Shown: positions 6,802-26,309 of the stretch, piece by piece
How positions within the stretch are numbered: the first letter of the stretch is position 1
Layout of the letters: each line of letters begins with the position of its first letter
Assembly: GCA_022646745.1 (NCBI GenBank)
Contig: CP060262.1
Location: 1,230,001-1,262,000, forward strand
DNA length: 32,000 nt
Direction of reading: 5' to 3'
Origin: Planctomycetales bacterium
GTDB taxonomy: Bacteria; 4484-113; JAFGCY01
Position numbers and translations under genes: made by a program
The notes under the pieces: model-generated
Told to the model about the DNA's origin: nothing
Databases searched by the model: none
Seen by the model: the letters and a program-made list of their open reading frames with translations, nothing else

Positions 6802-6875
6802 GCAAACCCCCAAATCTGCTGAATGCAGTTCAAACCTGGATCACTGATCGCGCGAAGCGCTACTATCCCTCCAAC

Positions 6876-9086: not shown

Positions 9087-9156
9087 GCAAACCCCCAAGT
9101 CTGCCGGTTGCGTATCCGTCCAGTCTCCAGCCGTGGAAGGCCCAGCCCGGCCATTC

Positions 9157-11382: not shown

Positions 11383-11490
11383 GTCCGTACCTCCTGCGCC
11401 GCCCGCAAGCCTGGCAGGCGCCTGTCCCGGAGGCATCCTGCCTCCAACTTCCATTCCCTGGATCCGCGGATCCTCCAGCCGGTTTATTCC

Positions 11491-13704
11491 CTACAGCTCT
11501 CCGAATGGCGGGATCACTCCCGTCACGCACATGATCTTGTCCTTGTTGGGGGATGTGCTCTCGGTCTCCTCCACGAGGAAGTAGGGCACATCGTTGACGA
11601 CGACCAGCTCGGCACCGGTGGCGGGCTTGACGATCGGCATCAGCATCACCTGCTGGAACCACTGGCTGCCGTCATAAACCGAGCAGTACCAGTTGGTGCT
11701 GTCATCAAGGTAGACGCAGATCAGGCCAGTGCCGCGGAAGGGCTCAAGCCTGGCGTGCCCGCCATATCCGCCTGTTGCCAGGTCCTCGGAGTTCCAGCTG
11801 CCGCCGGACTGGCGCAGCAGGTAGAGGTCATCGTTCGTCACATCGTAGCTGGTGCTGACCCAGCCGCCCGGTGTCATCACCAGGTCGGTGTACAGGCCAT
11901 TGTTGTCACCCATGTTGTCGGAGATCACGGCGGGGGCATACGGAGCCGGGCCCTTGCCGAACAGCAGTTCATGGATCTCATAGTCGAAGTACATGTATTC
12001 TGGATTGTTGCCATTCGCCTTCATCTCGAGCTGCACCGGGAAGCCGCTGTCGTTCAGTGTGCGGACGCTGGTACTGGTCCAGCTGCCCCCGGCGATCGGC
12101 TTCTCACGCATGTAGGTCAGCTTGGCGTAGTAGTCCTTGTCGATGATGTAGTAGCTGTCGTCCGTGATTGCCACCGACAGGTGGTTGCCTGCGCTCGGCA
12201 CGTCGAACTGGCCGACCTTCGTGCCGTCCGCAACGAACTCCTTGGTCCAGCCATTGCCCGGGTCGCCATAACTGGCATACAGGTCCTGGTTGAGGAAGTC
12301 AAATGCACCAACCAGGAACTTACCGTTGCGCTCGGAGATGTCCAGGTAGTTGTCAAAGCTCTCTGTGCCGAACTCCAGCCCGCAGTCGCCAACTGACCAG
12401 CTGCTGCCGGTGCCCTGGGCGAAGGCTACACTGCCCGACGGGGTGCCACCAGCATTCGCACCGAGCCAGATGACACTGGCCGTGTTGCCGGTGGCCACTG
12501 CGCGGATCGGCTCGGAGCCGTTGCCAATCGGGTGCACCTGGGTCCAGTCCCAGAACTCACCGGTGATCGCCGGCAGGTCATCCGTCATCCGGCCGCGGGA
12601 GTTGTTCAGGCTGACGCCGACAATGCGGAAGTAGTACAGCGTGTTGGTCTGCAGGTTGTTGAACTGCGCACTGCGGGCCCAGCTCTGGGAGCGGTAGCGG
12701 ATCTCGATCTCTGGTTCGAGGTTGAAGTCCTTCTCGGCCTTCAGGTAGACATAGAATCCGTTGGCAGGCTCAGGTCCGAGTTCCTCGATGTTCCAGTCCC
12801 AGCCAATCGTGACTGAATCAGGCGTCGCTTCGTCAACACGCGGGTTCTGCGGCGCCGGCATGTCGATCGTCGGTGCGAACAGGTCGATGTAGTCACTCGG
12901 GCCGGATTCCGTTGCGCCGACTGCTGTGACGAAGAAGTAGTAGATAACGCCCTTGAGGATCGGGGTGTAATCGAAGTCCGGGCCTGTCACTGGCTCTGTG
13001 TTCAGCTTCAGCGGGTCACGCAGGTCCGACCAGCGGGAGAAGTAGACGTTGTAGCTCTGAGCACCGGGCACCGGGTCCCACTGCAGGCCGATGTTCTCGG
13101 GAGTCTGCTCGTCACTGCGCAGGTTCTTCGGAGCAGTGATGGTCACATCGCCGACTCGGTTGAAGGTCAGCTTCTGCACGTCTATCGTAGCCGGACCGGT
13201 ACGCAGCAGTGCAATGTGCACGTTGCCGTTCGGGCTGGCGTAATGTGCTGGAGTAACCGGTGTGAAGGTATAGCTTCCATTCTCAGTGGTGCTGAACCAT
13301 TCCCAGCGGCCCTTGTTGTAGTTGGCCATGCCGATGTACAGCACAGTGCCGGCCCCGGTCAGGATGTTGTATTCAGCCTTGATGGAACCGAGGTCCAGTG
13401 TGTCGAAGCTGCTCAGGCTGTAGATCGCCCAGGGGGCCGTGCCATCATTGAGCTTGCAGACCGTGGAGACTGCATGCGCGCCTCCACCGGCTGAGCTGAA
13501 CTCATTGCCCAGCAGCTCGATTGAGTCATCACTGGCCTTGCGGAAGTTGTCCGCCGGTGGCCAGCTGAGGTCTCCCGCTTCGGCCGGCAGGATGTCCACA
13601 GTGCCTGTATCACCTACCCTTGGATCGCCTGAGCCGCAGGAGACAAGCGCGAGTGCAAGTGTGACAAGCATCACGAAGCGACAGTTCTGGAGCAGAATCT
13701 TCAT
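11491..13704 (-). CDS. large surface lipoprotein, divergent paralog 4 of 4
   Basis: 737 aa. The signal is MKILLQNCRFVMLVTLALALVSCGSG (canonical lipobox LVSC), with SD aaagga 6 nt upstream. It has the same module order as the other three, with an FN3-like LQWDPVPGAQSYNVYF...YYFFVTA, but a much more diverged sequence. Confidence 0.8.
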   Translation of the reverse strand: MKILLQNCRFVMLVTLALALVSCGSGDPRVGDTGTVDILPAEAGDLSWPPADNFRKASDDSIELLGNEFSSAGGGAHAVSTVCKLNDGTAPWAIYSLSSFDTLDLGSIKAEYNILTGAGTVLYIGMANYNKGRWEWFSTTENGSYTFTPVTPAHYASPNGNVHIALLRTGPATIDVQKLTFNRVGDVTITAPKNLRSDEQTPENIGLQWDPVPGAQSYNVYFSRWSDLRDPLKLNTEPVTGPDFDYTPILKGVIYYFFVTAVGATESGPSDYIDLFAPTIDMPAPQNPRVDEATPDSVTIGWDWNIEELGPEPANGFYVYLKAEKDFNLEPEIEIRYRSQSWARSAQFNNLQTNTLYYFRIVGVSLNNSRGRMTDDLPAITGEFWDWTQVHPIGNGSEPIRAVATGNTASVIWLGANAGGTPSGSVAFAQGTGSSWSVGDCGLEFGTESFDNYLDISERNGKFLVGAFDFLNQDLYASYGDPGNGWTKEFVADGTKVGQFDVPSAGNHLSVAITDDSYYIIDKDYYAKLTYMREKPIAGGSWTSTSVRTLNDSGFPVQLEMKANGNNPEYMYFDYEIHELLFGKGPAPYAPAVISDNMGDNNGLYTDLVMTPGGWVSTSYDVTNDDLYLLRQSGGSWNSEDLATGGYGGHARLEPFRGTGLICVYLDDSTNWYCSVYDGSQWFQQVMLMPIVKPATGAELVVVNDVPYFLVEETESTSPNKDKIMCVTGVIPPFGEL

Positions 13705-13748: not shown

Positions 13749-13822
13749 TGGGGAATCGTCTAACGGTAGGACGCCTGACTCTGGATCAGGTAGTCTAGGT
13801 TCGAATCCTAGTTCCCCAGCCA
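13749..13822 (+). tRNA. tRNA-Gln (anticodon CUG), CCA encoded
   Basis: Hand-folded 74-nt cloverleaf. Acceptor stem TGGGGAA/TTCCCCA; anticodon stem CCTGA/TCAGG; loop CTCTGGA (anticodon CTG); T-arm CTAGG-TTCGAAT-CCTAG; discriminator G plus CCA. Confidence 0.9.
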
Positions 13823-14006: not shown

Positions 14007-14639
14007 ATGGATTTGCAGATCAATTCAGCTGCCCGCAGGCAGGATCGTCGCCGGATGGTGCTGGACACGGCTGTGCTGATGATTGAGGAATCCGGTTTCC
14101 AGGGGCTTTCCCTGCGCAAGCTGGCCCAGAAGGTTGATTCAACCACACAGCTTGTTTACACCCTGTTCGGCGGCAAGCTAGGCCTGTTCCAGGAGCTGTA
14201 CCGCGATGGCTACCGGATCATGACGGAGATGTTTCAGGCGGCACCCAAATCGCAGAACAGCCTGATGTACCTTAGTACGCTTTGCTGGAAGTACCGCGAA
14301 TTCGCATTGAACCATCCGGTGCTGTTCTCGCTGATGTTCAGCCGCCCCGTGCCGGAGTTCATCCCGCCGGATGTCGGCCTGCTGCGCCAGCAGGAGCCGG
14401 TGCGGATCATGCTGGAGGCTGTCCGCACGGCACAGCGGGGAGGTATGTTCCAGGGGATCACCGCCGAGCATGCCGTTGAGCACTTGCTGTTGACGGTGCA
14501 TGGCGCAGTGCAGATGGAACTCGGAGGCTTCTACGGTGACCAGATGGAAGCCAGTGAAAGCTTCGGCCGTGCCCTGCGGATTGTGGCCAATGGAATGAAC
14601 GCGTCCAGTCCGGCAAGCACACGGCGAGCCAACAGCTGA
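14007..14639 (+). CDS. TetR/AcrR-family transcriptional regulator
   Basis: 210 aa. The N-terminal HTH region, RRMVLDTAVLMIEESGFQGLSLRKLAQKVDSTTQLVYTLFGGK, is typical TetR_N. Confidence 0.85.
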   Translation: MDLQINSAARRQDRRRMVLDTAVLMIEESGFQGLSLRKLAQKVDSTTQLVYTLFGGKLGLFQELYRDGYRIMTEMFQAAPKSQNSLMYLSTLCWKYREFALNHPVLFSLMFSRPVPEFIPPDVGLLRQQEPVRIMLEAVRTAQRGGMFQGITAEHAVEHLLLTVHGAVQMELGGFYGDQMEASESFGRALRIVANGMNASSPASTRRANS

Positions 14640-14847: not shown

Positions 14848-17800
14848 GTGAAACGCAAGACCAGCCGCAAGCTCATCTCCCTTCCAACCCTGATCGCAGT
14901 GTGCAGCCTGTTGTGCTGTGCCTGCGGATCCGGTTCCCGCCTGGATGTCAGTGCCGGCCCCTTTTCCTACCGGCGGATTTCCACCGCGATTGATTCCGAT
15001 CCAGCCTCTGGCACCCTTTCCCTGAAGCAGGAGAATGCTGGAGACGGCCTGCTGCTCAGCCTGATGGTGGAAGATGCACAGGACCTGCGCAGTCTGGCGG
15101 TTGAAATCTGCTTTGATGCAGAGGCCTGGCAGCTGGCGGATGCCGCAGCGAGCGAGCTGCTCGGTTCCGAACCTCTGCTGCTGCAAAGCTCGATGCTGGT
15201 TTCGAATGGAACGCTGGCCCACGGCCAGGTGTTGATTGATGCGGGCCAGCAGGCCGGATTCACCGGTTCCGGCTGCCTGGCGCGCTTCCACTTCACGCCT
15301 GGCGCCGGAGATGTCCCGCGCGAAACATCGGCAGTCTCGAATGCGCTGCCGCTGCCACAGTGGGATGAAGGGACATGGGAACTGAACTGGCCCTATTCAA
15401 ACACCGGTGACTACGACCAAAACAGTGAGGTCAACATTGCCGACCTGACCCCGATCGGGATCCACTTCGGCGAGGTCGTCAGCGACCCGCTCAGCAGCCA
15501 GGCGATCATTGACGGGGATGCCAATGGCGAGATCAACATCGCGGACATCACCCCGATCGGAGTGAACTACGGCCGCAGCCTGTCCGCCTACCGCTTGTGG
15601 GAGCTGGCCAGCCCGCTGGACTGGCTCGGGCCGGCTGATACCGTCCCGCTGGCCGACATCGTGTTTGCATCCGCCACTGGCCTGCCCGCACAGGACCTGC
15701 TGCAGTTCACATATAAGTATGCGGCGGATCCCGGTTATCGCTGGCTACGCCTCGCCCCGGTCAGTGGAGAGGACACCGGCCCGGTAACGGATTACATCTT
15801 CACCTATCCATCCCTGCAGCCACTGCTTTCCGTGGCTGACGGCACTGGACTTACCGGCAATGGCTCTGAAGCGGACCCATTCTCGCTGGAGGTGCCAGCC
15901 AGTGTCCCGCTGAAGCTGCTGCTGCAGGATGACACGGACGTGACGGCGGATGCGCTCAGCAGCTTTGCTGTCAGTGGCCCGGCCGGCGGCAGCATCAGTG
16001 GTTCCAGCCTCGAGCTGGATGCCTCAAGTGCCGGTGACTACCTTGTTACGGCGACATACGACGGCGTGCCTTCCGATCCCTTCGCGCTGTATTTCCATGT
16101 CAACGAACCACCTGAGGCAATTCTGGTTGCTAATCCAACCAGTGGCAATGTCCCGTTCACGGTGGAACTGGATGCCAGCCAGAGCAGCGACCCGGATGGT
16201 GAGATCGTGCTCGCGGAATGGGACTTTGACAACGATGGCACATTCGACCGTGAGACCGGTGATCTGCTGACAACCCTGCGACGGTATGACACAGAAGGTA
16301 CCTACGAGGCTGTGGTCAGGCTGACGGATGACAAGGGAGCCAGCAGCGTGAGTGACCCGCTGCTGATCACCGTGGAGCCCCCCAACCAACCACCGCAGCC
16401 GGTTGTCAGTGGCAACCCGCTCAGCGGCAATACCCCATTGACGGTGGAGTTTGATGCATCAGCCAGCTCGGACCCGGACGGCAGCATCGAGAGCATCAGC
16501 TGGGACTTTGACAACGACGGAAGCTATGAGCTGCTGGACAGCCAGGACTTCACGCCGCAGCATACATTCGTCGTGCCCGGACAGTATGAAGTGGCGGTGC
16601 GGCTGCGGGATGACGATGGCGCGGTCGCATTCAGCTCACCCCTGTTCATCAACGTGGGTGGCAACTTCCCACCGACAGCCGTGCTGCGCGCCGTGCCGAA
16701 TGCCGGTCCATCGCCACTGCTGGTGCAGCTCGATGCCAGTGAATCAACGGACGGTGACGGCAGCATCGTGCTCGTGGAATGGGATTTCAGCGGTGATGGC
16801 GAATATGACCAGAGCGGTACCCTGTTCGTGGTGAGCAACCTGTACACCGGTGATGGGGTGTTCCATCCGGTGGTGCGCCTGACTGACAACAATGGTGGCG
16901 TGACGGTCAGTGAACCGGCCACCGTCACCGTCGGCGTGGCAGCCGGTTCACCCCCCGTGGCACTGCTCAGCGCACTGCCCCAGTCCGGGCCGGCCCCGCT
17001 TGATGTCACGTTCAGTGGAACAGGCAGTACGGATGCTGATAATGACATCCTCTATGTGGAGTTCGACTTCGAAAATGACGGGACCTGGGACGTGCTGGAT
17101 GATGACGACTTCACGGTCTCACACCGCTATGAATTGGACGGGACCTATGAAGCAGTGCTGCGGGTGACGGACAGCTACGGATTCCGGGATACCAGTGATC
17201 CCGTTGAAATCACAGTCAGCAGCGGTTCTCCTCCCACTGCATTCTTCCAGGCGGCCAGCCTCAGCGGGGTTTCCCCGTTTGACCTGGTGCTGGATGCCTC
17301 TGGCAGCAGCGACCCTGACGGCTCGATCAGCCTGTACGAATGGGACGTGGATGCTGATGGATCCTACGACCTTGCGACAACATCCTCGAGCGCGCAGCTC
17401 AGCCTGGTGACCGAAGGCCAGCGGGACCTGCGCCTGCGGGTGACGGACAGTGACGGCATGTCCGCGACCTTCAGCCGGGAGTTCACGGTTTCCCCGCCGT
17501 CGCTGGGCTGGAATGACTGGAGCACAGGCATCGTGAACCCGCAGAATGCACACCTCCGTGCGGTTGGCGGCAGGCCGGCTGTCGCCTGGCAGTCCAGCGG
17601 GGCCGATCTGTTCTTCAAGCGCAGTGCGGATGTGGACGGGCATAGCTGGCCGGTGACAGGCTCGCTGGTGGACAGTGACCTCACGGGCTATCCCGGAGGC
17701 AGCATCCGATTGGTTGATTTTGCAGTCAGCGGCGGCGTGCCCTTGATGCTTACGCTGAAGGGCACCGCGGCCCAGGCCGACCATGACATGTTCGTCAGCC

Positions 17801-18588
17801 GTGGGCTCAATTCAGACGGCTCATCCTTTGCACTTCCGCTGAAGATCGTGTCCGGTCCGGTCTTCCGCCCGGACCGCGACAACCGTGGTCTGCCCCTGCT
17901 GGCGGAATTCAGCGGCCTGCCCGGTGTTTGCTATGGCTCCGATCAGAGCGGGGGCTGGCACCATATCCGGGCGCTGGACAGCACCGGCAGCAGCTGGCAG
18001 GCCAGCCCGAGTGCCATCAGCGGATCGCAGTCGGCGGCCAGTCCATTCGGAAGCCTGCTGCAGGATCCGTCCGGTGGTGCGCTGCTGTTCTACTTCGACC
18101 AGGACGGCATCATGGCCAACCGCGATCCGGATGGCAATGGCAGCAACTGGAACTTCCGCGAGCAGCTGTTCAGTATTGGAGATGTTGTCCGGATCCAGTC
18201 GATCACCAGTTCCGACAGCGTGCTGCTGCTGTACACCGTCAAGGAAGGAGTGACTGATTACACCCTGTGGGCCAGCCACGCCAGCTCGCCATCATTTGCC
18301 AGCTGGACCGATCCGGCCAGAGTTATTGACATCAATTCTTCAGTGGCTGATGCCCAGCTGCTGCTGGATAACGGCAAGCCTGTGGTGCTGCTCAGTGGCA
18401 ACCCCGGTGGCGATGGTGGGGTGCACTATCTTCGCAGCCACGATGCGCGCGGCAGTGGCTGGAGCGAGACTCGTCGGATCAGCAGCCAGACGGCCGGGGA
18501 ATTGCGCGCTGCCACGATTGTCAATGGGCGGCTGGCTGCCATCCATCTGCGCAGTAATGGTGCCCTCAGGCTGCTGCAGAGGGAATAG
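14848..18588 (+). CDS. giant surface lipoprotein: cohesin-like module, dockerin, five PKD domains, C-terminal propeller-like module
   Basis: 1246 aa. Signal MKRKTSRKLISLPTLIAVCSLLCCACGS. Two dockerin Ca-loop repeats lie at about 15406-15573: DYDQNSEVNIADL and DGDANGEINIADI, with D/N at positions 1, 3, 5 and 12. Five PKD repeats lie at about 16108-17493, each with a DAS.S.DPDG...WDFDNDG-like core. The C-terminal ~360 aa carry recurrent D-x-x-G-x-x-W motifs. The cohesin-like call for aa ~55-150 is weaker. Confidence 0.8.
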   Translation: MKRKTSRKLISLPTLIAVCSLLCCACGSGSRLDVSAGPFSYRRISTAIDSDPASGTLSLKQENAGDGLLLSLMVEDAQDLRSLAVEICFDAEAWQLADAAASELLGSEPLLLQSSMLVSNGTLAHGQVLIDAGQQAGFTGSGCLARFHFTPGAGDVPRETSAVSNALPLPQWDEGTWELNWPYSNTGDYDQNSEVNIADLTPIGIHFGEVVSDPLSSQAIIDGDANGEINIADITPIGVNYGRSLSAYRLWELASPLDWLGPADTVPLADIVFASATGLPAQDLLQFTYKYAADPGYRWLRLAPVSGEDTGPVTDYIFTYPSLQPLLSVADGTGLTGNGSEADPFSLEVPASVPLKLLLQDDTDVTADALSSFAVSGPAGGSISGSSLELDASSAGDYLVTATYDGVPSDPFALYFHVNEPPEAILVANPTSGNVPFTVELDASQSSDPDGEIVLAEWDFDNDGTFDRETGDLLTTLRRYDTEGTYEAVVRLTDDKGASSVSDPLLITVEPPNQPPQPVVSGNPLSGNTPLTVEFDASASSDPDGSIESISWDFDNDGSYELLDSQDFTPQHTFVVPGQYEVAVRLRDDDGAVAFSSPLFINVGGNFPPTAVLRAVPNAGPSPLLVQLDASESTDGDGSIVLVEWDFSGDGEYDQSGTLFVVSNLYTGDGVFHPVVRLTDNNGGVTVSEPATVTVGVAAGSPPVALLSALPQSGPAPLDVTFSGTGSTDADNDILYVEFDFENDGTWDVLDDDDFTVSHRYELDGTYEAVLRVTDSYGFRDTSDPVEITVSSGSPPTAFFQAASLSGVSPFDLVLDASGSSDPDGSISLYEWDVDADGSYDLATTSSSAQLSLVTEGQRDLRLRVTDSDGMSATFSREFTVSPPSLGWNDWSTGIVNPQNAHLRAVGGRPAVAWQSSGADLFFKRSADVDGHSWPVTGSLVDSDLTGYPGGSIRLVDFAVSGGVPLMLTLKGTAAQADHDMFVSRGLNSDGSSFALPLKIVSGPVFRPDRDNRGLPLLAEFSGLPGVCYGSDQSGGWHHIRALDSTGSSWQASPSAISGSQSAASPFGSLLQDPSGGALLFYFDQDGIMANRDPDGNGSNWNFREQLFSIGDVVRIQSITSSDSVLLLYTVKEGVTDYTLWASHASSPSFASWTDPARVIDINSSVADAQLLLDNGKPVVLLSGNPGGDGGVHYLRSHDARGSGWSETRRISSQTAGELRAATIVNGRLAAIHLRSNGALRLLQRE

Positions 18589-18734
18589 GACTCACTCCAA
18601 ATCATTTCCAGTAGAGGAACCGATTGATGCCTGCCGGTGCAGTGGCGACAGGATGGATTTCGCCTAGGAATGTTTTGGAAAAAAGATCAATCATTTAGTT
18701 TACTCCTGCTTTCCCTGGAATATTTATTCAAAAT

Positions 18735-18763
18735 TTGAATTTTTGGCGGAAGCACCCTAGAAT
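18735..18763 (+). promoter_or_regulatory. near-consensus sigma70-type promoter TTGAAT-N17-TAGAAT upstream of the tripled cassette
   Basis: TTGAAT at 18735-18740, a 17-nt spacer, then TAGAAT at 18758-18763, within an AT-rich stretch. It implies a leader of roughly 87 nt before the ATG at 18857. Confidence 0.55.
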
Positions 18764-18856
18764 CTGCATAGGAGCAAAACCTTGCGCTCCCCTCGTGATT
18801 CATCCCCGCATTCCCTTTCGCGCGGATGAACACGGACATAGATCGGAGGAAGAACA

Positions 18857-19195
18857 ATGAATCGCATCAGCATCGTTATCGCTGCCATTGCCATGATGGC
18901 CCTCGCTGCCTGTTCCAGTACAGCAGGCAATGACATGATTTCAGACAGCATGCAGCAGAAGGACGCAAGCAGCGTGTCACTGACCCTGGTCTGGAATGCA
19001 AATGCCACGCTGTGCAACTTCAAGCTGGCTGACTACGATGCCACGCTCGGCGAGCTGTACAAGGGCACTGACTTCGACGCCGACATGGATCGCATGGAGG
19101 AAGCCATCGCCTTTGAACTCAGCCTCAATCGCAATGACATCCAGGGTGAGTCCACCATGGGATTCGTCCACTTCGACGATGAAGTCGTCGACTGA
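18857..19195 (+). CDS. small lipoprotein, cassette module 1 (112 aa)
   Basis: SD ggagga 6 nt upstream. Signal plus lipobox MNRISIVIAAIAMMALAAC. The C-terminus STMGFVHFDDEVVD is shared with the two downstream copies. Confidence 0.8.
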   Translation: MNRISIVIAAIAMMALAACSSTAGNDMISDSMQQKDASSVSLTLVWNANATLCNFKLADYDATLGELYKGTDFDADMDRMEEAIAFELSLNRNDIQGESTMGFVHFDDEVVD

Positions 19196-19242
19196 GCCGG
19201 CAGGCACTGGTATCCAATTCACCAACTAACAAAGGAAAAAAA

Positions 19243-19374
19243 ATGAGCAACAACCACTTCGACATCAACCAGCAGACCATCAACCTTCCGGCTGGCGCAC
19301 ACGGCGTGCTCAGCACCTGCCTGACCGACAGCAGCCCGGACTATGTGTGGTTCGACTGCGAAGCCGAACTCTAG
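19243..19374 (+). CDS. 43-aa peptide, cassette module 1 (absent from the ORF track, below its length cutoff)
   Basis: My translation is MSNNHFDINQQTINLPAGAHGVLSTCLTDSSPDYVWFDCEAEL. SD aaagga lies upstream. The 29 C-terminal codons differ from copy 2 only by synonymous changes. Confidence 0.8.
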   Translation: MSNNHFDINQQTINLPAGAHGVLSTCLTDSSPDYVWFDCEAEL

Positions 19375-19441
19375 GAACGTGACAAACCTTCCGCGCTGAG
19401 CGGAATCGCCATCCAACCCAGTTACAAGAGAGGAATACACA

Positions 19442-19633
19442 ATGAAGAAGATCAGCATCACCATCGCCACCATCGCCCTGTTCGCGCTCTGCTCCTGCTC
19501 CGGCCAGGGATCCACCGACATGCTTGGTGAAAGCAACACCGAATACGGCAATCCGAGCCTTGGCCAGGATGCTTCCGTGGACTTCCGCGACACCAGCGGC
19601 TTCGTGCACTTTGATGATGAGACGGTCGACTAG
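19442..19633 (+). CDS. small lipoprotein, cassette module 2 (63 aa, internally shortened variant)
   Basis: SD agagagga. Signal MKKISITIATIALFALCSC. It keeps the C-terminal GFVHFDDETVD but lacks the central WNAN...DF..DM...E.AIA block found in modules 1 and 3. Confidence 0.7.
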   Translation: MKKISITIATIALFALCSCSGQGSTDMLGESNTEYGNPSLGQDASVDFRDTSGFVHFDDETVD

Positions 19634-19672
19634 ACCTGCAAGTAATCCACCACCTACTGCGAGGAAAGAACA

Positions 19673-19804
19673 ATGAGCAACATCAACAACGACAGCAACA
19701 TCCAGAGCATCAGCCTCCCCGCCGGTGCCCATGGTGTCCTGAGCACCTGCCTGACTGACAGCAGCCCGGACTACGTATGGTTCGACTGCGAGGCTGAGCT
19801 CTAG
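19673..19804 (+). CDS. 43-aa peptide, cassette module 2 (absent from the ORF track)
   Basis: My translation is MSNINNDSNIQSISLPAGAHGVLSTCLTDSSPDYVWFDCEAEL. SD gaggaaag lies upstream. Confidence 0.8.
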   Translation: MSNINNDSNIQSISLPAGAHGVLSTCLTDSSPDYVWFDCEAEL

Positions 19805-19873
19805 GAACCACCTGCACCTGTCCGGGATTACCGGGCTGGACCAGACCGAAAGATACATCCAAGGAGAAATAAA

Positions 19874-20203
19874 ATGAACAAGATCAACACCCTCATCGCC
19901 ATCGTCGCCCTCAGCATCCTCTGCTCCTGCTCCGGCCAGTCCACCAGCGACATGCTTGCCGAGCGCAACACCGCAGATGTGACCTCCGTGATCGACGGCT
20001 GGAATGCCAACTGCGCCACCTACAACTTCGGCCCGGCTTACTCCGATGAGACCCTTGGCGACATCTACTACGGCTCTGACTTCGAGACCGACATGAACGG
20101 CATCGAGCAGGCGATCGCAGACTACTACGGCATCTCCCGCGACAACGTGGATGGCACCTCCACCATGGGTTTCGTGCACTTCGATGATGAGACGGTGGAC
20201 TAA
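19874..20203 (+). CDS. small lipoprotein, cassette module 3 (109 aa)
   Basis: SD aaggag. Signal MNKINTLIAIVALSILCSC. Collinear with module 1 (WNANCATYNF, GSDFETDM, IEQAIA). The C-terminus is STMGFVHFDDETVD. Confidence 0.8.
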   Translation: MNKINTLIAIVALSILCSCSGQSTSDMLAERNTADVTSVIDGWNANCATYNFGPAYSDETLGDIYYGSDFETDMNGIEQAIADYYGISRDNVDGTSTMGFVHFDDETVD

Positions 20204-20264
20204 ACAGTAACCAGGCAATTCCTGTCTGAATACTGAACACCTGAACACCCAAGAGGAAAGAGAA

Positions 20265-20396
20265 ATGGAAAAGAACAACATCGAGATCGAGCAGCCGACG
20301 GCAAGCCTCCCCGCAGGAGCGCATGGCATCCTCAGCACACGCCTGACGGATGAGAGCCCGGATTACGTCTGGTTCGACTGCGAAGCCGAGCTGTAG
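20265..20396 (+). CDS. 43-aa peptide, cassette module 3 (absent from the ORF track)
   Basis: My translation is MEKNNIEIEQPTASLPAGAHGILSTRLTDESPDYVWFDCEAEL. SD agaggaaag lies upstream. Confidence 0.8.
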   Translation: MEKNNIEIEQPTASLPAGAHGILSTRLTDESPDYVWFDCEAEL

Positions 20397-20414
20397 CTGC
20401 CGGGATTGCGGCAG
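20397..20414 (+). terminator. short GC hairpin immediately after the last cassette gene (weak terminator or RNA-stability element)
   Basis: CTGCCG-ggattg-CGGCAG starts right after the stop codon, with no U-tract. Similar small hairpins follow peptide 1 (TTCCGC-gctga-GCGGAA, 19389-19405) and peptide 2 (CCGG-gatta-CCGG, 19822-19834). Confidence 0.25.
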
Positions 20415-20641
20415 TAAACAAGCTGTAGGGACTGGCCGCCTGGATGTGCAGGCGTGCCGGGATGACTGATGAATCGGGATGGGAGATCCTCGGGTGGATG
20501 ATGGACCACCCGCAGGCTGCCGGCATTCGCCGGACACGCACTCATTCATTTCGCCAGGCAAGAAATGTGCCTGCGCGCGCAAGAACGGGACAGATAATCA
20601 ATGGAAGGCCATGCCTGAACAAGCAGGCAGTGAACCGGGGA

Positions 20642-21460
20642 TCAGGCGGTCAGGGTGTTGACTGAGTTGCCACCGCCGAATTCGGGGTTGCGGAAATGGC
20701 GCTTCAATACATCCATCAGGCTTTCACCGTTGTCATCAGTGATCTGCTTGATGCGCTGCTCGAAGCTCTGCTCCACATCCTCGTCGACGATTCCCAGTTG
20801 CAGTGAGGGCTGCCAGATATCCTTCTGGATGTACTTGATGTGTTCAGCGAACTCGGCATTATCCATCACCCACAGCAGGTCTTCCTTGTTGAAGAGCCGC
20901 TGCACGATGCGCATCAGGGCATAGGCCCGGACCCAGTTCCAGTTGGCATGCAGGCCGCGGGCGTTGTTGATCGCGAAGTCGTAGGACTTGATCAGGTACT
21001 GCTCATTGCCCAGCTTGTAGGCCCAGCTGGTGATCTTGTTCCACAGCTCGGAGGTCTGCATGTCCAATGGAATCACGCTCAGCAGGCGGTCCATCGTGGT
21101 CTGGTCCAGCGGCAGGAACTCCAGGCGGTCCATCGTGATCCTGAGCTGGAGGTATAGCCGGCGGCGCAGCATCTCGGCACTCTCGAAGCTGCTTTCCTGC
21201 TCGAGGCGGTTGAGGATTCCCGGCAGGTACTTCATCGCCCAGCCCTCCTCACGCTGCACCAGCCTTACCTGGTACTCCAGGTAGGTCAGCTGGTAAAAGA
21301 AGCGAGAGTTCTCTTCCTCTGGGAACATGACGGCTTCATGGGCTTTCCATGCTTCCTGCATGCGCTGCTCCTGAAGCTTCGTATCACGCGCGTACAGGGC
21401 GTGCACGATCGGCTCACAGAAGTCCACGAACCACTTTTCCTTGGATAGGTCTAGCGTCAT
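20642..21460 (-). CDS. hypothetical cytoplasmic protein with no signal peptide
   Basis: The ORF track gives 20642-21565. I prefer the internal Met (MTLDLSKEKWF...), which is preceded by TATAAT (21476-21471) and aagg. The region 21461-21565 is AT-rich and looks non-coding. No family recognised. Confidence 0.55.
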   Translation of the reverse strand: MTLDLSKEKWFVDFCEPIVHALYARDTKLQEQRMQEAWKAHEAVMFPEEENSRFFYQLTYLEYQVRLVQREEGWAMKYLPGILNRLEQESSFESAEMLRRRLYLQLRITMDRLEFLPLDQTTMDRLLSVIPLDMQTSELWNKITSWAYKLGNEQYLIKSYDFAINNARGLHANWNWVRAYALMRIVQRLFNKEDLLWVMDNAEFAEHIKYIQKDIWQPSLQLGIVDEDVEQSFEQRIKQITDDNGESLMDVLKRHFRNPEFGGGNSVNTLTA

Positions 21461-21807
21461 TGCCTTGGAAATTATACCTGAATTTAACCTTTCTCCGGCT
21501 GCCCCTTGCTGCCGGATTCCGCCTCTCCGAAAATTAAATTCCGAAGCTACATCAAAATATATCATTTCTTGCCAGTCATTTCCACATCAAACCACGCGCA
21601 TGTACATGAAATGTTAACTGGAATTAACCTGGGGCCAGTTCTTGCGAAGTTTCGCCCGTGCTCCGGTGCAGTTTCGCACCGGATGTCACTTTGCCAGACC
21701 ACTCCAAGCATTTGACCTTTGCTGATATTTACGATGTCCCGCCAGGCAACAATTCCGCTGCAATTCAGATATAATTGCGCTGCATTCATTTGCGGAGGAA
21801 GAACAGA

Positions 21808-23144: not shown

Positions 23145-24890
23145 ATGAGCAGATTCGCAATGATGCTGGCCGTGCTGGCGCTGCTGCCCGCGATGGCCCT
23201 TGCCAACGGCTACGACACCTACAGTGCACCGATCGCCTGGAGCCCGGACAGCCACGAGCTGTGCGTGGTGCAGGGCTACGACTGGCCCCAGCCGCAGGTT
23301 GCCAACGAAGGCAGCGTGCTGGTGTATGACCAGTACGGTCGGATCCAGTACGACCTCGGGACCTGGGATGCAGGCTCGCCGGCCTACAGCCCGGATGGGA
23401 AGTACCTCGCAGTGATTGCCAACGGACAGGCGCAGCTCTTCCTGCGCGACGGCTATGAGCCGCTTGCGCCGGTGGACCTCGAGGGCAGCGGGCTGGACCT
23501 GGCCTTCGTCGGCCAGCCGGGTGAGTACGAGCTGGCCTACAGTGTCGGGCCGCGCTTCTACGGGGCCAGCCTCGTGATCCAGCAGCCGGAGGGTGGCAAC
23601 GAGACCGAACTGCCAAAGCCCCTGCCCGGTGACAGCGCGATCAGCCTGCGGATGTGCCCGACGGACTGGCGGATGGCCTTCCTGCTGCAGAGCACGGCGG
23701 ACAACGGCCCGGCCTACGAGCGGATCTACGGTTTCGATGACAACGGCGAACCCTACCAGCTGACGAGGCCGCAGTTGCGCCCTGATGACTACCACGAAAG
23801 CAACATCTGCTTCATGCCCGATGGCAGCCTGCTGTTCCAGCGCGGCGGCTGGGGGGACTGGCACATCTTCCGGCTCGATCCGGCCAGCGGACGCGAGACC
23901 CTCGTTGTCCCGGATGCGCAGCAGCCCAGCGTCAGTGCGGACGGAAGGCTGATTGCGTTCACGCGGCGCAGCTATGCAGATAAGCAGAAGGTCGAATACG
24001 ACTGGGAGATCCCGCCCGGGGTCTGGGTGCGTGACCTGGCAACCGGCCAGGAGTGGCGCATCAGTGACAACGAGAATGAGGCGGAGCATCCGGTGATCTC
24101 ACCGGACGGGCGCAAGCTGGCCTGGCTGCAGCGCATGGAGACTGAGCCGCGCCTGATGGTGCGCAGCGTGATCGGCTTCACCGGCGTGCTCGAGAAGCTG
24201 GAGCAGGATGCCGATGACGACACGGTAATGTATGAAGACATCCAGATGGACGAGCCGCTGATTGACGACGAGCAGGACCCGGAACTGGGCGGGATTGACA
24301 GCACGGCTGAACACCTGTCCCCCAAGGCAATGGAGATCAGCTACGTCAAGTTCGAATGCACGAATGGCGACATCATCTTCGCCGTGCACCATGAGTGGAA
24401 CCCGCTGGCGGCGGAGCGCTTCATCACGCTTGTCAACAGCGGCTACTACGACGGCGCACCCTGGTTCCGGGTGATTGACGGTTTCGTGGCCCAGTGTGGC
24501 ATCAGTGCGGACCCGCGCATGAATGCGGAATGGGACGAGGCGACCTTCCCGGATGAGGAGGTGCTGGTTGGCAACACCCGCGGGATGGTGGCCTACGGCA
24601 AGACAGGCGACCCGGATTCGCGCACCACGCATATCTACATCAACTATGGCGACAACTCACGGCTGGACGAGAAGGGCTTCAGCGCATTCGCTGAGGTCTG
24701 GCAGGGAATGGACGTGGCCGACTCGCTGTTCCGCTGCGAGTATGACGACCAGGAAGGGTTGGCGGCGGAGGGCGGCCTGGCCAAATTCCGTGAGATGTTC
24801 CCCGAGGCGGATTTCATTGAGCTGGCCTATGTGATGGAGGGCGATCCACCGGCCTACCAGCCTGTGCTGGAGCCGGAATCGATGGAATAA
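23145..24890 (+). CDS. exported fusion protein: TolB-like (PD40) beta-propeller plus C-terminal cyclophilin-type peptidyl-prolyl isomerase
   Basis: Signal MSRFAMMLAVLALLPAMALA. PD40-like repeats: SPDGKYLAV, MPDGSLLF, SADGRLIAFT, SPDGRKLAW. The C-terminal ~170 aa match the cyclophilin signature (NPLAAERFITLVNSGYYDGAPWFRVIDGFVAQCG ... RGMVAYGKTGDPDSRTTHIYINYGDNSRLD ... FAEVWQGMDV). Confidence 0.8.
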   Translation: MSRFAMMLAVLALLPAMALANGYDTYSAPIAWSPDSHELCVVQGYDWPQPQVANEGSVLVYDQYGRIQYDLGTWDAGSPAYSPDGKYLAVIANGQAQLFLRDGYEPLAPVDLEGSGLDLAFVGQPGEYELAYSVGPRFYGASLVIQQPEGGNETELPKPLPGDSAISLRMCPTDWRMAFLLQSTADNGPAYERIYGFDDNGEPYQLTRPQLRPDDYHESNICFMPDGSLLFQRGGWGDWHIFRLDPASGRETLVVPDAQQPSVSADGRLIAFTRRSYADKQKVEYDWEIPPGVWVRDLATGQEWRISDNENEAEHPVISPDGRKLAWLQRMETEPRLMVRSVIGFTGVLEKLEQDADDDTVMYEDIQMDEPLIDDEQDPELGGIDSTAEHLSPKAMEISYVKFECTNGDIIFAVHHEWNPLAAERFITLVNSGYYDGAPWFRVIDGFVAQCGISADPRMNAEWDEATFPDEEVLVGNTRGMVAYGKTGDPDSRTTHIYINYGDNSRLDEKGFSAFAEVWQGMDVADSLFRCEYDDQEGLAAEGGLAKFREMFPEADFIELAYVMEGDPPAYQPVLEPESME

Positions 24891-24957: not shown

Positions 24958-24986
24958 TTGTCGCTCCATGGCTCGCATTGTATAAT
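24958..24986 (+). promoter_or_regulatory. sigma70-type promoter TTGTCG-N17-TATAAT for the first Cys-repeat gene
   Basis: TTGTCG at 24958-24963, a 17-nt spacer, then TATAAT at 24981-24986. SD ggag lies 7 nt before the ATG at 25021. Confidence 0.5.
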
Positions 24987-25020
24987 TTTCGACACCTATT
25001 ACGAATCAGCGGAGCAACTG

Positions 25021-25716
25021 ATGAGGAAAGTGATCTTCGCCGCGATGATCGTGGCGGCACTGACGGTATTTGCAGGGGGCACTTCCACAGCCTGGGCAGG
25101 TTGTGGCTGCAAGGATAAGTGCGGATGCTCCCAGAAGGCTGACTGCGGCTGCAAGGACAAGTGTGGCTGTGAGAAGCCGAAGTGCGGCAAGTGCGAAAGC
25201 AAGTGTGGCTGCGAGAAGCCCAAGTGCAACAAGTGCGAGAGCAAGTGCGGCTGCAGCAAGCCCAAGTGCAACAAATGCGAGAACAAGTGCGGCTGTGAGT
25301 CCAAGTCCAAGTGCGGTTGCTCCAGCGGCTGTGACTGCTGCGTCCAGAAGGTCGCGCAGAACCACCATCCCTACGAATGCCAGTACCGTGGCAGCAGCAT
25401 GGTCTGCGACATGGGCTGCTGCAGCGGCCCGATCTGCATCCCCAAGTGCGAGGTCTGCACGACCACCTGCACCAAGAAGGAATGCACCGACAGCTGCGGC
25501 TGCTCCCATGTGACCTGGGAAAGCCACACCACCTGCGGAGCTCCCGAGCGTCCGCGCACCATCCCCTGGTGGTTCAACATCGAGGCCGGCACCGGCAATA
25601 TCTACCTTGAGGGTGATGAGAAGTGGGAAAGCGCCAGCGAGGAAGGCGGTGAGGAGATGGCTTCCGCCGAGAAGAGCAGCGAAAAGTCTGAAACCGTTGA
25701 GTCCAGCGAAGCTTAA
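25021..25716 (+). CDS. exported cysteine-repeat protein (KCGC repeats, metallothionein-like), acidic C-terminal tail
   Basis: The ORF track gives 24958-25716. The Met at 25021 has an SD and starts the signal MRKVIFAAMIVAALTVFAGGTSTAWA. I count about 37 Cys, 25 of them within an ~81-aa block of the form GCGCKDKCGC...KCGCEKPKC(G/N)KCESKCGC... Confidence 0.75.
   Translation: MRKVIFAAMIVAALTVFAGGTSTAWAGCGCKDKCGCSQKADCGCKDKCGCEKPKCGKCESKCGCEKPKCNKCESKCGCSKPKCNKCENKCGCESKSKCGCSSGCDCCVQKVAQNHHPYECQYRGSSMVCDMGCCSGPICIPKCEVCTTTCTKKECTDSCGCSHVTWESHTTCGAPERPRTIPWWFNIEAGTGNIYLEGDEKWESASEEGGEEMASAEKSSEKSETVESSEA
25159..25284 (+). repeat. in-frame 42-bp tandem repeat x3 (KCGC[ES]KPKC[GN]KCE[SN])
   Basis: Units at 25159-25200, 25201-25242 and 25243-25284, with degenerate Cys-rich units on both sides. 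Confidence 0.8.
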
Positions 25717-25790: not shown

Positions 25791-26309
25791 ATGAAGAAGT
25801 TTGTGATCAGCAGCTTCCTGGCAGCGGTGGCGGTTTTCGCCCTGCTCGGTTCCGCTTCCGCAAGCACTGTTTCCAGCGCGGTTGACAATGCCATCGTGGC
25901 CGTCAACATGCAGGTCGGTGCCGTCAGCTTTGACGTTGCCCACTGTGGCAAGTGCGGCATGGAAGGCGAGCACGCTGCCAAGGCTGACATGAAGATGGAC
26001 CACGGCGCCAACTGCGGCTGTGGCTGCAAGAGCAAGTGCGGCTGCTCCAAGCCCAAGTGTGGCTGTGAGAAGAAGTGCGGTTGCTCCAAGCCCAAGTGCG
26101 GTTGCGAGAAGAAGTGCGGCTGCTCCAAGCCCAAGTGCGGTTGCGAGAAGAAGTGCGGCTGCGAGAAGCCGAAGTGCGGCTGTGAGAAGAAGTGCGGCTG
26201 CAAGGACAAGTGCGAGTGCTGCCCCAAGAAGGTTGAGAACTACCCCGATGCCAACCGTGGCGCCGAGGGTGAGTGGGCCCGCGATGGCCTCAGCCGCCAG
26301 AAGGCGTAG
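25791..26309 (+). CDS. exported cysteine-repeat protein 2 (KCGCSKPKCGCEK repeats, metallothionein-like)
   Basis: SD gggaggg upstream. Signal MKKFVISSFLAAVAVFALLGSASA. 26 Cys in 172 aa. Differences between repeat units fall on third codon positions of this frame. Confidence 0.8.
   Translation: MKKFVISSFLAAVAVFALLGSASASTVSSAVDNAIVAVNMQVGAVSFDVAHCGKCGMEGEHAAKADMKMDHGANCGCGCKSKCGCSKPKCGCEKKCGCSKPKCGCEKKCGCSKPKCGCEKKCGCEKPKCGCEKKCGCKDKCECCPKKVENYPDANRGAEGEWARDGLSRQKA
26034..26222 (+). repeat. in-frame 39-bp tandem repeat, 4 full units plus a partial fifth
   Basis: Units at 26034-26072, 26073-26111, 26112-26150 and 26151-26189, plus a partial unit at 26190-26222. Units 1-3 differ only by ggc/ggt and tgt/tgc synonymous changes. 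Confidence 0.85.

Follow-up and report, generated by a model that had tools for sequence, protein, structure and literature searches.

Tandem lipoprotein–peptide cassettes encode a lineage-restricted family of small proteins with a selected C-terminus in UBP7/4484-113 bacteria

Introduction

What is encoded by three very short reading frames that the gene list of an uncultured bacterium leaves out, and what could their products do? The open reading frames (ORFs) in question lie in a stretch of 32,000 nucleotides from an assembly labelled Planctomycetales bacterium (GCA_022646745.1, contig CP060262.1, positions 1,230,001 to 1,262,000 of the forward strand); this whole stretch is called the window here, and coordinates are counted from its first letter. 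An earlier reading of the bare sequence, referred to below as the original prediction, had proposed three unannotated 43-codon genes in which a variable N-terminal head precedes a C-terminal tail under strong purifying selection. The three ORFs are present, all on the plus strand, and encode the predicted sequences:

19243..19374, plus strand: peptide gene 1, 43 amino acids (aa); AAGGA Shine-Dalgarno sequence 8 nucleotides (nt) upstream
19673..19804, plus strand: peptide gene 2, 43 aa; GAGGA Shine-Dalgarno sequence
20265..20396, plus strand: peptide gene 3, 43 aa, with I22, R26 and E30; GAGGA Shine-Dalgarno sequence

These ORFs are genuine protein genes, and they belong to a new, lineage-restricted family of small proteins in which selection maintains the C-terminal ~30 residues. 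Small proteins are systematically overlooked by annotation pipelines, and PGAP skipped all three peptides here; the cassette of orphan peptide and orphan lipoprotein genes to which they belong provides a tractable entry to the envelope biology of UBP7/4484-113, an uncultured phylum found frequently in wastewater and anammox reactors.

Coding status and selection

Copies 1 and 2 were compared by the Nei-Gojobori method over codons 15–43. They differ at 15 nucleotides, distributed over the three codon positions as [0,0,15], and all 15 changes are synonymous, which reproduces the count of the original prediction; the estimate yields 15.0 synonymous differences on 19.8 synonymous sites (pS 0.76, saturated) and no nonsynonymous difference on 67.2 nonsynonymous sites (dN 0). 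With random placement, 15 exclusively synonymous changes would arise with a chance of ~(19.8/87)^15, roughly 2e-10. The saturated silent sites bear out the proposal that the duplication is old. Copy 3 differs from copies 1 and 2 by V22I, C26R and S30E together with 14–16 third-position changes, again as predicted. The non-coding flanks differ between the units, except for the Shine-Dalgarno sequence and for a stem-loop of unit-specific sequence; with flanks that diverge in this way, conservation operates in frame and at the level of the protein, not of the DNA or RNA, as had been argued.

The same pattern extends through the family. For all pairs of 15 peptide genes from eight loci, the ratio of nonsynonymous to synonymous differences per site (pN/pS) is 0.13 for codons 15–43, 0.26 for codons 11–20 (the hinge) and 0.80 for codons 2–10; differences within the tail number 213, 244 and 1162 at codon positions 1, 2 and 3, and a start codon, a strong Shine-Dalgarno sequence and a stop codon are kept in all 15 genes. 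The strong purifying selection claimed for the last 29 codons is thereby corroborated across genomes, and the contrast between tail (0.13) and head (0.80) agrees with the view that the C-terminus is the functional part of the peptide. No other coding sequence in the window is as strongly constrained as the three peptide genes. The possibility that the conservation stems from an RNA or DNA element, or that the ORFs occur by chance, is next to negligible: the NCBI annotation does omit them, and an antisense ORF of 342 codons spans the array in which they lie, but the codon-position patterns ([0,0,15] in copies 1 and 2, [213,244,1162] in the family) effectively refute a non-coding origin. The unconserved flanks, the absence of any Rfam match, and the start, Shine-Dalgarno and stop signals retained in 15 genes from eight loci also speak against it.

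The head follows different rules. Its first 14 residues had been described as essentially unconserved; this holds for residues 2–10, which vary freely, whereas positions 11–14 (Q-T-I-S) are semi-conserved. Similarly, the length that appeared fixed is 43 aa throughout the window and varies from 42 to 45 aa across the family. Residues 2–10 are compositionally constrained, polar, and rich in N, S, Q, D, E and I. Positive selection on the head was considered, as copies 1 and 2 show 9.8 nonsynonymous versus 0.2 synonymous differences there, yet on just 5.5 synonymous sites; the family-wide pN/pS of 0.80 is near-neutral and not demonstrably diversifying, and diversification of the head was dropped as an interpretation. 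The complete peptides are anionic, with net charges between -5 and -6, and their calculated unmodified masses, initiator methionine included, are 4755.1, 4616.0 and 4792.2 Da.

TAG is the stop codon of all three peptide genes. As a side observation, TAG is the commonest stop codon among the 28 likely genes of the window (TAG 13, TGA 9, TAA 6), and 10 of the 28 proteins end in glutamate, always preceding TAA or TAG; the TAG excess and the glutamate ends are unusual for a genome of 60% GC.

Organization of the lipoprotein–peptide cassettes

Every peptide gene in the window belongs to a cassette in which a small acidic lipoprotein gene is followed by the peptide gene and then by a stem-loop; the cassette occurs three times, and the three-unit repeat structure is evident in a DNA comparison. 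The peptide genes start 47–61 nt 3' of their lipoprotein genes. Each array, in the window as in the other loci, opens with a lipoprotein gene not preceded by a peptide ORF and closes with a peptide gene that faces a convergent gene (orf272 in the window). The original prediction had missed the pairing with lipoproteins, the stem-loop after each peptide gene, and this lineage-specific, TPR-like neighbor. In addition to the peptide genes, the array and its convergent neighbor comprise the following features:

18735..18763, plus strand: candidate sigma-70-like promoter from a consensus scan, TTGAAT-17-TAGAAT, upstream of the first lipoprotein gene
18857..19195, plus strand: lipoprotein type A, 112 aa; signal peptide, lipobox LAAC, acidic mature part, tail GFVHFDDEVVD
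19379..19409, plus strand: stem-loop 1, GC-rich, just 3' of the peptide 1 stop; core TTCCGC-N5-GCGGAA, no T tract
19442..19633, plus strand: short lipoprotein, 63 aa; signal peptide, lipobox LCSC, linker of ~30 residues, tail GFVHFDDETVD, no helical core
19812..19844, plus strand: stem-loop 2, GC-rich, 3' of the peptide 2 stop; core GTCCGGG-N5-CCGGGC, minimum free energy (MFE) -17.2, z -2.3
19874..20203, plus strand: lipoprotein type B, 109 aa; lipobox LCSC, predicted three-helix core ~37-95, conserved tail predicted to be disordered
20397..20436, plus strand: stem-loop 3, GC-rich, beginning at the peptide 3 stop; CTGCCG-GGAT-TGCGGCAG
20642..21460, minus strand: orf272, convergent; 272 aa, predicted all-alpha TPR-like solenoid, no signal peptide, lineage-specific

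The promoter candidate is the sole match in its region, and is weak in view of 1.1 matches expected by chance. Folding of the 45 nt after each of 15 peptide genes and 15 lipoprotein genes from the eight loci gave a mean MFE of -14.3 kcal/mol (z -1.35) behind the peptide genes, compared to -6.1 (z -0.08) behind the lipoprotein genes; since the stem-loops follow the peptide genes and not the lipoprotein genes, the boundary of the unit is placed after the peptide gene. The stem-loops lack a T tract, and Rfam and tRNA scans of the array returned no match.

Lipoprotein and peptide genes alternate in all eight independent loci, with two to three cassettes per locus. In locus L008, two whole cassettes are identical (9419-9942 and 10001-10524); in L002, two lipoprotein genes are identical (9615-9950 and 10194-10529); and the two peptide genes of L007 (75-206 and 674-808) show one difference in 60 nt of the head as opposed to differences at 10 of 69 sites in the tail. 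Set against the saturated silent sites in the window, these identities indicate an old yet dynamic array that is shaped by recurrent duplication and partial gene conversion. Some smaller details accompany these loci: the 20 nt upstream of the two L007 peptide genes are also almost identical, L002 contains a degenerate third lipoprotein-like stretch (10565-10813), and the most divergent peptide of the family, P0013, which ends in CETEY, is likewise found in L002.

Distribution and annotation

The cassette is confined to one lineage, UBP7 or, in GTDB terms, phylum 4484-113, genus JAFGCY01. In a search space of 5.8 billion proteins, a profile of the three peptides recovered 13 clusters of 42–66 aa with the same tail, in comparison to 18 clusters for the lipoprotein family and five for orf272. 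An HMMER search run exhaustively over 1.84e9 representatives added solely P0032 and P0034, which are repeat-protein artefacts. Scanning 185,579 species genomes with back-translated DNA found four positive metagenome-assembled genomes, always at the same locus; two of these are labelled UBP7 (from Hong Kong wastewater), one AC1.30, and one is a bin labelled 'Planctomycetales'. The ENA bins that contain the locus are labelled GTDB phylum 4484-113, genus JAFGCY01. A scan of metagenome DNA for uncalled copies produced 217 pattern matches and no relatives among them. Literature searches found the motifs WFDCE and FVHFDDE absent in any relevant sense, and papers mentioning UBP7 or 4484-113 contained nothing on the locus.

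The claim that the peptide genes are unannotated is confirmed by a second assembly, GCA_020440665.1, whose sequence agrees fully with the window across the 4.2 kb compared (L010, JAGRNS010000015.1:39504-43695, corresponding to window positions ~17442-21633): its NCBI annotation calls the three lipoproteins and orf272 and omits all three 43-aa genes. An NCBI gene list without the peptides explains why they were missing from the ORF track that accompanied the window. Prodigal-type gene calling does recover the 43-aa genes in Logan and ENA assemblies of this species, and in GCA_041395205.1 a homologue bears the annotation hypothetical protein. Six additional contigs from this species carry identical or nearly identical arrays and are for this reason uninformative on polymorphism.

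Gene order is shared by every locus: two fn3 protein genes, a TetR gene and a PKD protein gene precede the two to three cassettes, and the convergent 272-aa gene follows them. Between the window and L002, the most distant locus, identities are 59% for the PKD protein, 55% for the fn3 protein, 67% for the peptidyl-prolyl isomerase (PPIase), 57% for the lipoprotein, 74% for orf272 and 85% for TetR, and the type A lipoprotein has orthologues in L001 and L004 that are 57–60% identical. The peptide tail is 91% identical between the window and L002 over the aligned residues, and 91–100% identical across genomes whose PKD, fn3 and PPIase orthologues share 55–67% identity; as the original prediction would lead one to expect, the tail stays nearly invariant in homologues from other genomes while neighboring proteins fall to 55–75% identity.

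Tail conservation and a putative β-hairpin

Residue conservation was assessed in 20 unique peptide sequences. The conserved tail, Q-T-I-S-L-P-A-G-A-H-G-V-L-S-T-x-L-T-D-x-S-P-D-Y-x-W-F-D-C-E-x-E-L, comprises the C-terminal ~29–33 residues; G21, L23, S24, T25, L27, D29, P32, Y34, W36, F37, D38, C39, E40 and E42 are invariant, and positions 22, 26 (C/R/S), 28, 30, 31, 33, 35 (V/A/L), 41 (A/N/T) and 43 vary. This variability has a period of two residues. When the tail is arranged as a hairpin with its turn at S31-P32-D33-Y34, seven of 10 positions on one face are variable versus none of eight on the other (Fisher p=0.004), and the invariant face consists of L23, L27 and W36 together with T25, D29, D38, E40 and E42. 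Judging from this alignment pattern, the tail may form a β-hairpin that turns at S-P-D-Y and presents one invariant face of aromatic and acidic residues. A conserved disulfide between C26 and C39 was rejected, as position 26 can be C, R or S; only Cys39 is invariant, leaving a single thiol, a point that the original prediction did not contain.

Comparison of the peptide profile with the PDB gave no more than marginal matches, namely a kinase CNH segment ('GILSTCL', E=0.019) and the E2o lipoyl domain ('VPASADGIL', E=0.054); as several unrelated proteins have similar scores, these were judged to be chance. The hinge sequence LPAGAHGVLSTCLTD (window 19285-19330, residues 15-30; in P0013, TPASADGVLSTRLMD) resembles VPASADGILDAVLED, a lipoyl strand of E. 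coli E2; as a structural lead, this likeness to 2-oxoglutarate dehydrogenase E2 (1pmr, E=0.054) is marginal and probably due to chance.

The length and position of the conserved block recall cis-acting arrest or leader peptides such as SecM, MifM, TnaC and SpeFL. By this very improbable account, the ~30 C-terminal residues would occupy the exit tunnel of the ribosome, and stalling at the stop codon would melt the stem-loop 2–15 nt behind it, which would in turn control the downstream lipoprotein gene or the 3' end of the transcript. A conserved C-terminal block of about one tunnel length, a variable N-terminus that would already have emerged, a stem-loop inside the stop-codon ribosome footprint of every copy, the TAG stop common to all three copies in the window, and the absence of nearby export or modification genes are all compatible with such a role. 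However, in every array the first lipoprotein gene has no peptide ORF upstream, and the last peptide gene has no same-strand gene downstream. The N-terminal export signal of force-sensing examples is absent, and conservation is far denser than in the arrest motifs described so far, in which only a few residues are constrained and not ~25 of 29. Copy 2 of L007 has an extra residue after L43 that shifts the motif relative to the stop, and the period-two pattern points to a face of a β-structure rather than to tunnel contacts.

The lipoproteins and their tail motif

Lipoboxes (LAAC/S, LCSC/S) can be read from the sequence behind hydrophobic h-regions in all three lipoproteins of the window, and their cysteine is invariant in 15 homologues. 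The three proteins are mutually ~44% identical, and their mature parts are very acidic, with charges of -9 to -16 (-14 for type A). The most conserved lipoprotein segment is the nearly invariant C-terminal tail, (M/S)GF(V/A)HFDDE(T/V)(V/I)D. In an AlphaFold2 model of type B, based on 15 homologues, a three-helix core spans residues ~37-95 with a predicted local distance difference test score (pLDDT) of ~85, and the tether and the tail are predicted to be disordered, with pLDDT below 50 in the tail; the modelled fold has no PDB match at E<1, and a lipoprotein profile has no match among PDB sequences. Two independent short forms, the 63-aa protein of the window and P0030, a protein of 65 aa from another organism, consist of anchor, linker and tail. 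Because the tail is the most conserved segment, is predicted to be disordered, and is retained in both of these coreless forms, it behaves as an autonomous linear motif.

The lipoprotein tail F-V-H-F-D-D-E-T is similar to the putative second strand of the peptide hairpin, Y-V-W-F-D-C-E-A. Both can be written as [FY]-[VA]-[HW]-F-D-[DC]-E, and both vary at position 2 (V/A) and at position 8. Peptides of the A type (Y-A-W) occur only with A-type lipoproteins (F-A-H), in three of three cases, and V-type peptides occur with both; this V/A co-variation was set aside as evidence, since the genomes are too few and phylogenetically confounded.

The TPR-like neighbor orf272

The convergent gene orf272 is present in every locus that extends far enough to include it. 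Its AlphaFold2 model (pLDDT 83) consists of 13 helices, and the top Foldseek matches are EMC2, LapB, the TPR domain of AspH, MalT domain III, the Craspase TPR and Rap-pheromone complexes. On the grounds of synteny and predicted fold class, orf272 is a candidate partner or receptor, and no more than a candidate, for the products of the cassettes. Mechanical ORF finding extends this gene to 307 codons (20642-21565, minus strand); the orthologues and the NCBI annotation start at the methionine at 21460 and give 272 aa, and the extra 35 upstream codons are probably untranslated.

Proposed function of the peptide

Pfam, NCBIfam, PADLOC and PHROGs contain no meaningful match for the peptides, the lipoproteins, orf272, orf129 or orf301; the module is built from three orphan families and is a member of no named family. 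It works most like the peptide-plus-partner cassettes of microcin/immunity and RRNPP/TPR systems, yet it lacks defining features of each. The interpretation preferred here, which has about an even chance of being correct, is that the peptide works as a small acidic protein without modification and uses a C-terminal hairpin to bind a conserved partner. According to this proposal, a leaderless, strongly acidic protein of 43 residues would dock onto its partner through the invariant aromatic/acidic face and Cys39; residues 2–10 would serve as a polar spacer that evolves almost neutrally; and the peptide would act stoichiometrically and unmodified, with the retention of several old copies reflecting selection for dosage. 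As partners, the lipoprotein of the same cassette and the TPR-like protein next to the array would be the most plausible. The data establish that the ORFs are coding, how selection acts on them, how the cassette is built, that it is confined to one lineage and that known maturases and exporters are absent nearby; the hairpin, its binding role, the partner and the cellular compartment are what we infer from these data.

As a caveat, several observations weigh against this interpretation. The partition into hairpin faces was set after the alignment had been seen. The lipoprotein is exported and the peptide has no export signal, so that contact between the two would require an unknown export route. 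Homology between the peptide and lipoprotein tails lacks statistical support (hhalign pairs YVWFD with FVHFD, E=0.15), leaving their likeness as a suggestive motif only, and a hidden Markov model of the lipoprotein tail did not retrieve the peptides from 2,392 six-frame ORFs. With regard to orf272, all Foldseek scores are weak (E>=0.09, template modelling scores 0.4–0.5), no Pfam family matches at E<=1 and consequently no Pfam TPR, no PDB sequence matches, and its own acidity (isoelectric point 5.1) disfavors electrostatic capture of a peptide of charge -6. The carriers of the locus are fairly close relatives with gene order conserved throughout, which makes synteny weak evidence. Finally, the search for modification enzymes covers the 32 kb window, and maturases may be encoded elsewhere in the genome.

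If peptide and lipoprotein both belong to an as yet undescribed envelope module of a diderm candidate phylum, the β-hairpin peptide and the lipoproteins could show their common C-terminal strand motif to a common receptor, either the TPR-like protein or the β-propeller of the PKD protein; this extension is unlikely. It is equally unlikely when put in other terms, as a pair of soluble and anchored ligands, or as peptide/TPR-receptor signalling outside the RRNPP systems of the Firmicutes. Similar to the pro-peptides of RRNPP systems and their TPR receptors (PapR/PlcR, Phr/Rap, AimP/AimR), the product has ~40–48 aa and a functional C-terminal part, its gene adjoins that of a cytoplasmic TPR-type protein, and Rap-pheromone complexes are among the Foldseek matches of orf272. 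In contrast to these systems, the peptide has no Sec signal, and its polar head has no hydrophobic stretch; the conserved part has 29–33 residues instead of 5–10; orf272 has neither a helix-turn-helix nor a Pfam domain, and its likeness to Rap (E 0.55–0.95) is generic for TPR solenoids; the orf272 gene is convergent and not co-oriented; and the peptides show no pherotype diversification. RRNPP systems have been described in Firmicutes and in phages of these bacteria, whereas the host here appears to be diderm, as FadL and the lipoproteins suggest.

A functional analogy can also be drawn to the EEVD tails of Hsp70 and Hsp90 that are bound by the TPR carboxylate clamps of Hop and CHIP. The lipoprotein (...DDE[TV]VD) and the peptide (...DCEAEL) both have an acidic C-terminal motif, which in the lipoprotein lies at the end of a predicted disordered tail, and a TPR-like gene is found alongside; the analogy is purely functional and implies no sequence relationship. 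Differing from EEVD tails, some lipoproteins continue for two residues after the motif (DVE/DVL/DVT), so that the position of the free carboxylate is not conserved, and the lipoprotein is extracytoplasmic whereas orf272 is cytoplasmic.

Regardless of these extensions, a peptide that acts as the ligand of the lipoprotein or of its TPR-like neighbor would represent a new small-protein interaction module, and an exported or modified peptide would represent a new class of peptide natural products or signals in which conservation is tail-first, not leader-first. So far, the module gives no sign of a new mechanism.

Export, processing and modification

Pfam and NCBIfam models were run over all ORFs of at least 120 aa in the 32 kb window, and found no radical-SAM, YcaO, Lan or lasso B/C enzyme, no Peptidase_C39 and no ABC_tran exporter. 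The peptide is unlikely to be a precursor that enzymes convert into a tailored product. The original prediction had noted that a variable head with an invariant tail reverses the leader/core design of ribosomally synthesized and post-translationally modified peptides (RiPPs), a fair comparison that fits the window without maturase or exporter.

These gene contents bear on the possible, if doubtful, alternative of an exported and processed peptide resembling a bacteriocin, microcin or pheromone. The head would then be a leader that is cut near L-P-A-G-A/H-G by a peptidase or exporter encoded elsewhere; an acidic, aromatic C-terminal peptide of ~23–24 residues would be active outside the cell; and the upstream lipoprotein would serve as a binding, immunity or presentation partner in the periplasm or outer membrane. 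Precursor peptides are typically encoded by small tandem genes in several copies, each with a strong ribosome-binding site and a stem-loop on its 3' side, as seen here; the partner, a lipoprotein, is itself exported and lies in a neighborhood made up entirely of envelope proteins, the conserved block begins abruptly at a small-residue hinge, (A/S)-G-A-H-G, and the head tolerates substitutions. In class II microcin cassettes the immunity gene comes first and the peptide gene second, an order similar to the one found here. Double-glycine cassettes of this type resemble the present array in their small partner gene followed by a peptide gene, in their tandem arrangement, and in an N-terminal segment of ~19 residues that ends in G-A. 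The resemblance does not extend to the gene set: neither a C39-peptidase ABC transporter nor any other exporter or protease is encoded in the window, a signal peptide is absent, and the double-glycine leader consensus is not clearly present, with A-G-A in most members, missing in P0012 (S-A-P-H-G) and replaced by A-S-A in P0013 (A-S-A-D-G), and with hydrophobic residues at -5/-7/-12 versus the expected -4/-7/-12. It is the leader, where a recognition element would be expected, that is conserved least in the peptide. The partner is an acidic lipoprotein and not a membrane immunity protein, and identical or near-identical cores are combined with differing lipoproteins (~44% identity), the opposite of toxin/immunity co-diversification. 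The strongly anionic charge of -5 to -6 is also unusual for membrane-active bacteriocins.

The invariant residues of the tail raise the further, quite improbable option of a RiPP precursor with enzymes encoded elsewhere, matured either into a lasso peptide through G21 and D29 (a 9-residue macrolactam, with Y34, W36 and F37 as plugs) or by a thioether between S24 or T25 and Cys39. G21 and D29 are invariant and eight positions apart, a pairing that is necessary and far from sufficient for a lasso peptide; bulky aromatic residues follow within an acidic 'core' of 23 residues, and the arrangement recalls the G1-D9 ring of astexin-type lassos. S24, T25 and C39 are invariant as well, and the putative precursor genes are present in several tandem copies. 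Unlike in RiPP clusters, in which the precursors of such classes nearly always adjoin their enzymes, no gene for lasso B, C or RiPP recognition element (RRE) proteins, LanB/C/M/KC/L, YcaO or radical-SAM enzymes occurs within the 19 kb upstream or the 11.6 kb downstream. The next-to-last position of the leader is occupied by A, P or T (position 19: A18 P1 T1) and not by the conserved Thr at -2; the YxxPxL-type motif is absent, and the unconserved head could not serve as a leader bound by an RRE. NCBIfam lasso and precursor models do not match, and by generic RiPP standards the window has no clustered maturase, no conserved leader, and no Pfam or NCBIfam precursor match at E<=1 beyond noise.

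Genomic neighborhood

The neighborhood is recognizable as an envelope-gene region. The following features lie outside the array:

4594-13704, minus strand: four tandem fn3 lipoprotein paralogues, ~737–786 codons; lipobox (e.g. LLCASCGGS), one fn3 domain each
13749-13822, plus strand: tRNA-Gln(CTG), between the fn3 array and the TetR gene
14007-14639: TetR regulator, before the PKD protein gene
14848-18588, plus strand: PKD lipoprotein, 1246 aa, five PKD domains; always directly upstream of the cassette array
23145-24890, plus strand: secreted PD40/cyclophilin protein; PD40/Tricorn-N β-propeller repeats fused to a cyclophilin-type PPIase domain

The four fn3 paralogues share ~31% identity with each other and keep their synteny across all related genomes, and three of them end alike (...KKVYAIRGNIP-x-E); the overlap between two of their listed ORFs (6876-9236 and 9157-11454) is purely an effect of the ORF finder, which runs past the likely start in the upstream direction. 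Inspection of the PKD protein by eye suggests two dockerin-like calcium-binding repeats (D-x-D-x-N-x-E-I-N-I-A-D-I-T-P-I-G) and a propeller-like C-terminal region. Downstream of the array follow a secreted 118-aa protein, a 301-aa lipoprotein, the PD40/cyclophilin protein and FadL. The PD40 region matched the lasso isopeptidase Atxe2 at 19.6 bits against a cut-off of 400, which amounts to propeller-repeat noise. Two partly paralogous secreted proteins (24958-25716 and 25791-26309, plus strand) have no family matches; the first of them contains a cysteine-rich repeat (GCGCKDKCGCSQKADCGCKDKCG...) that suggests metal binding.

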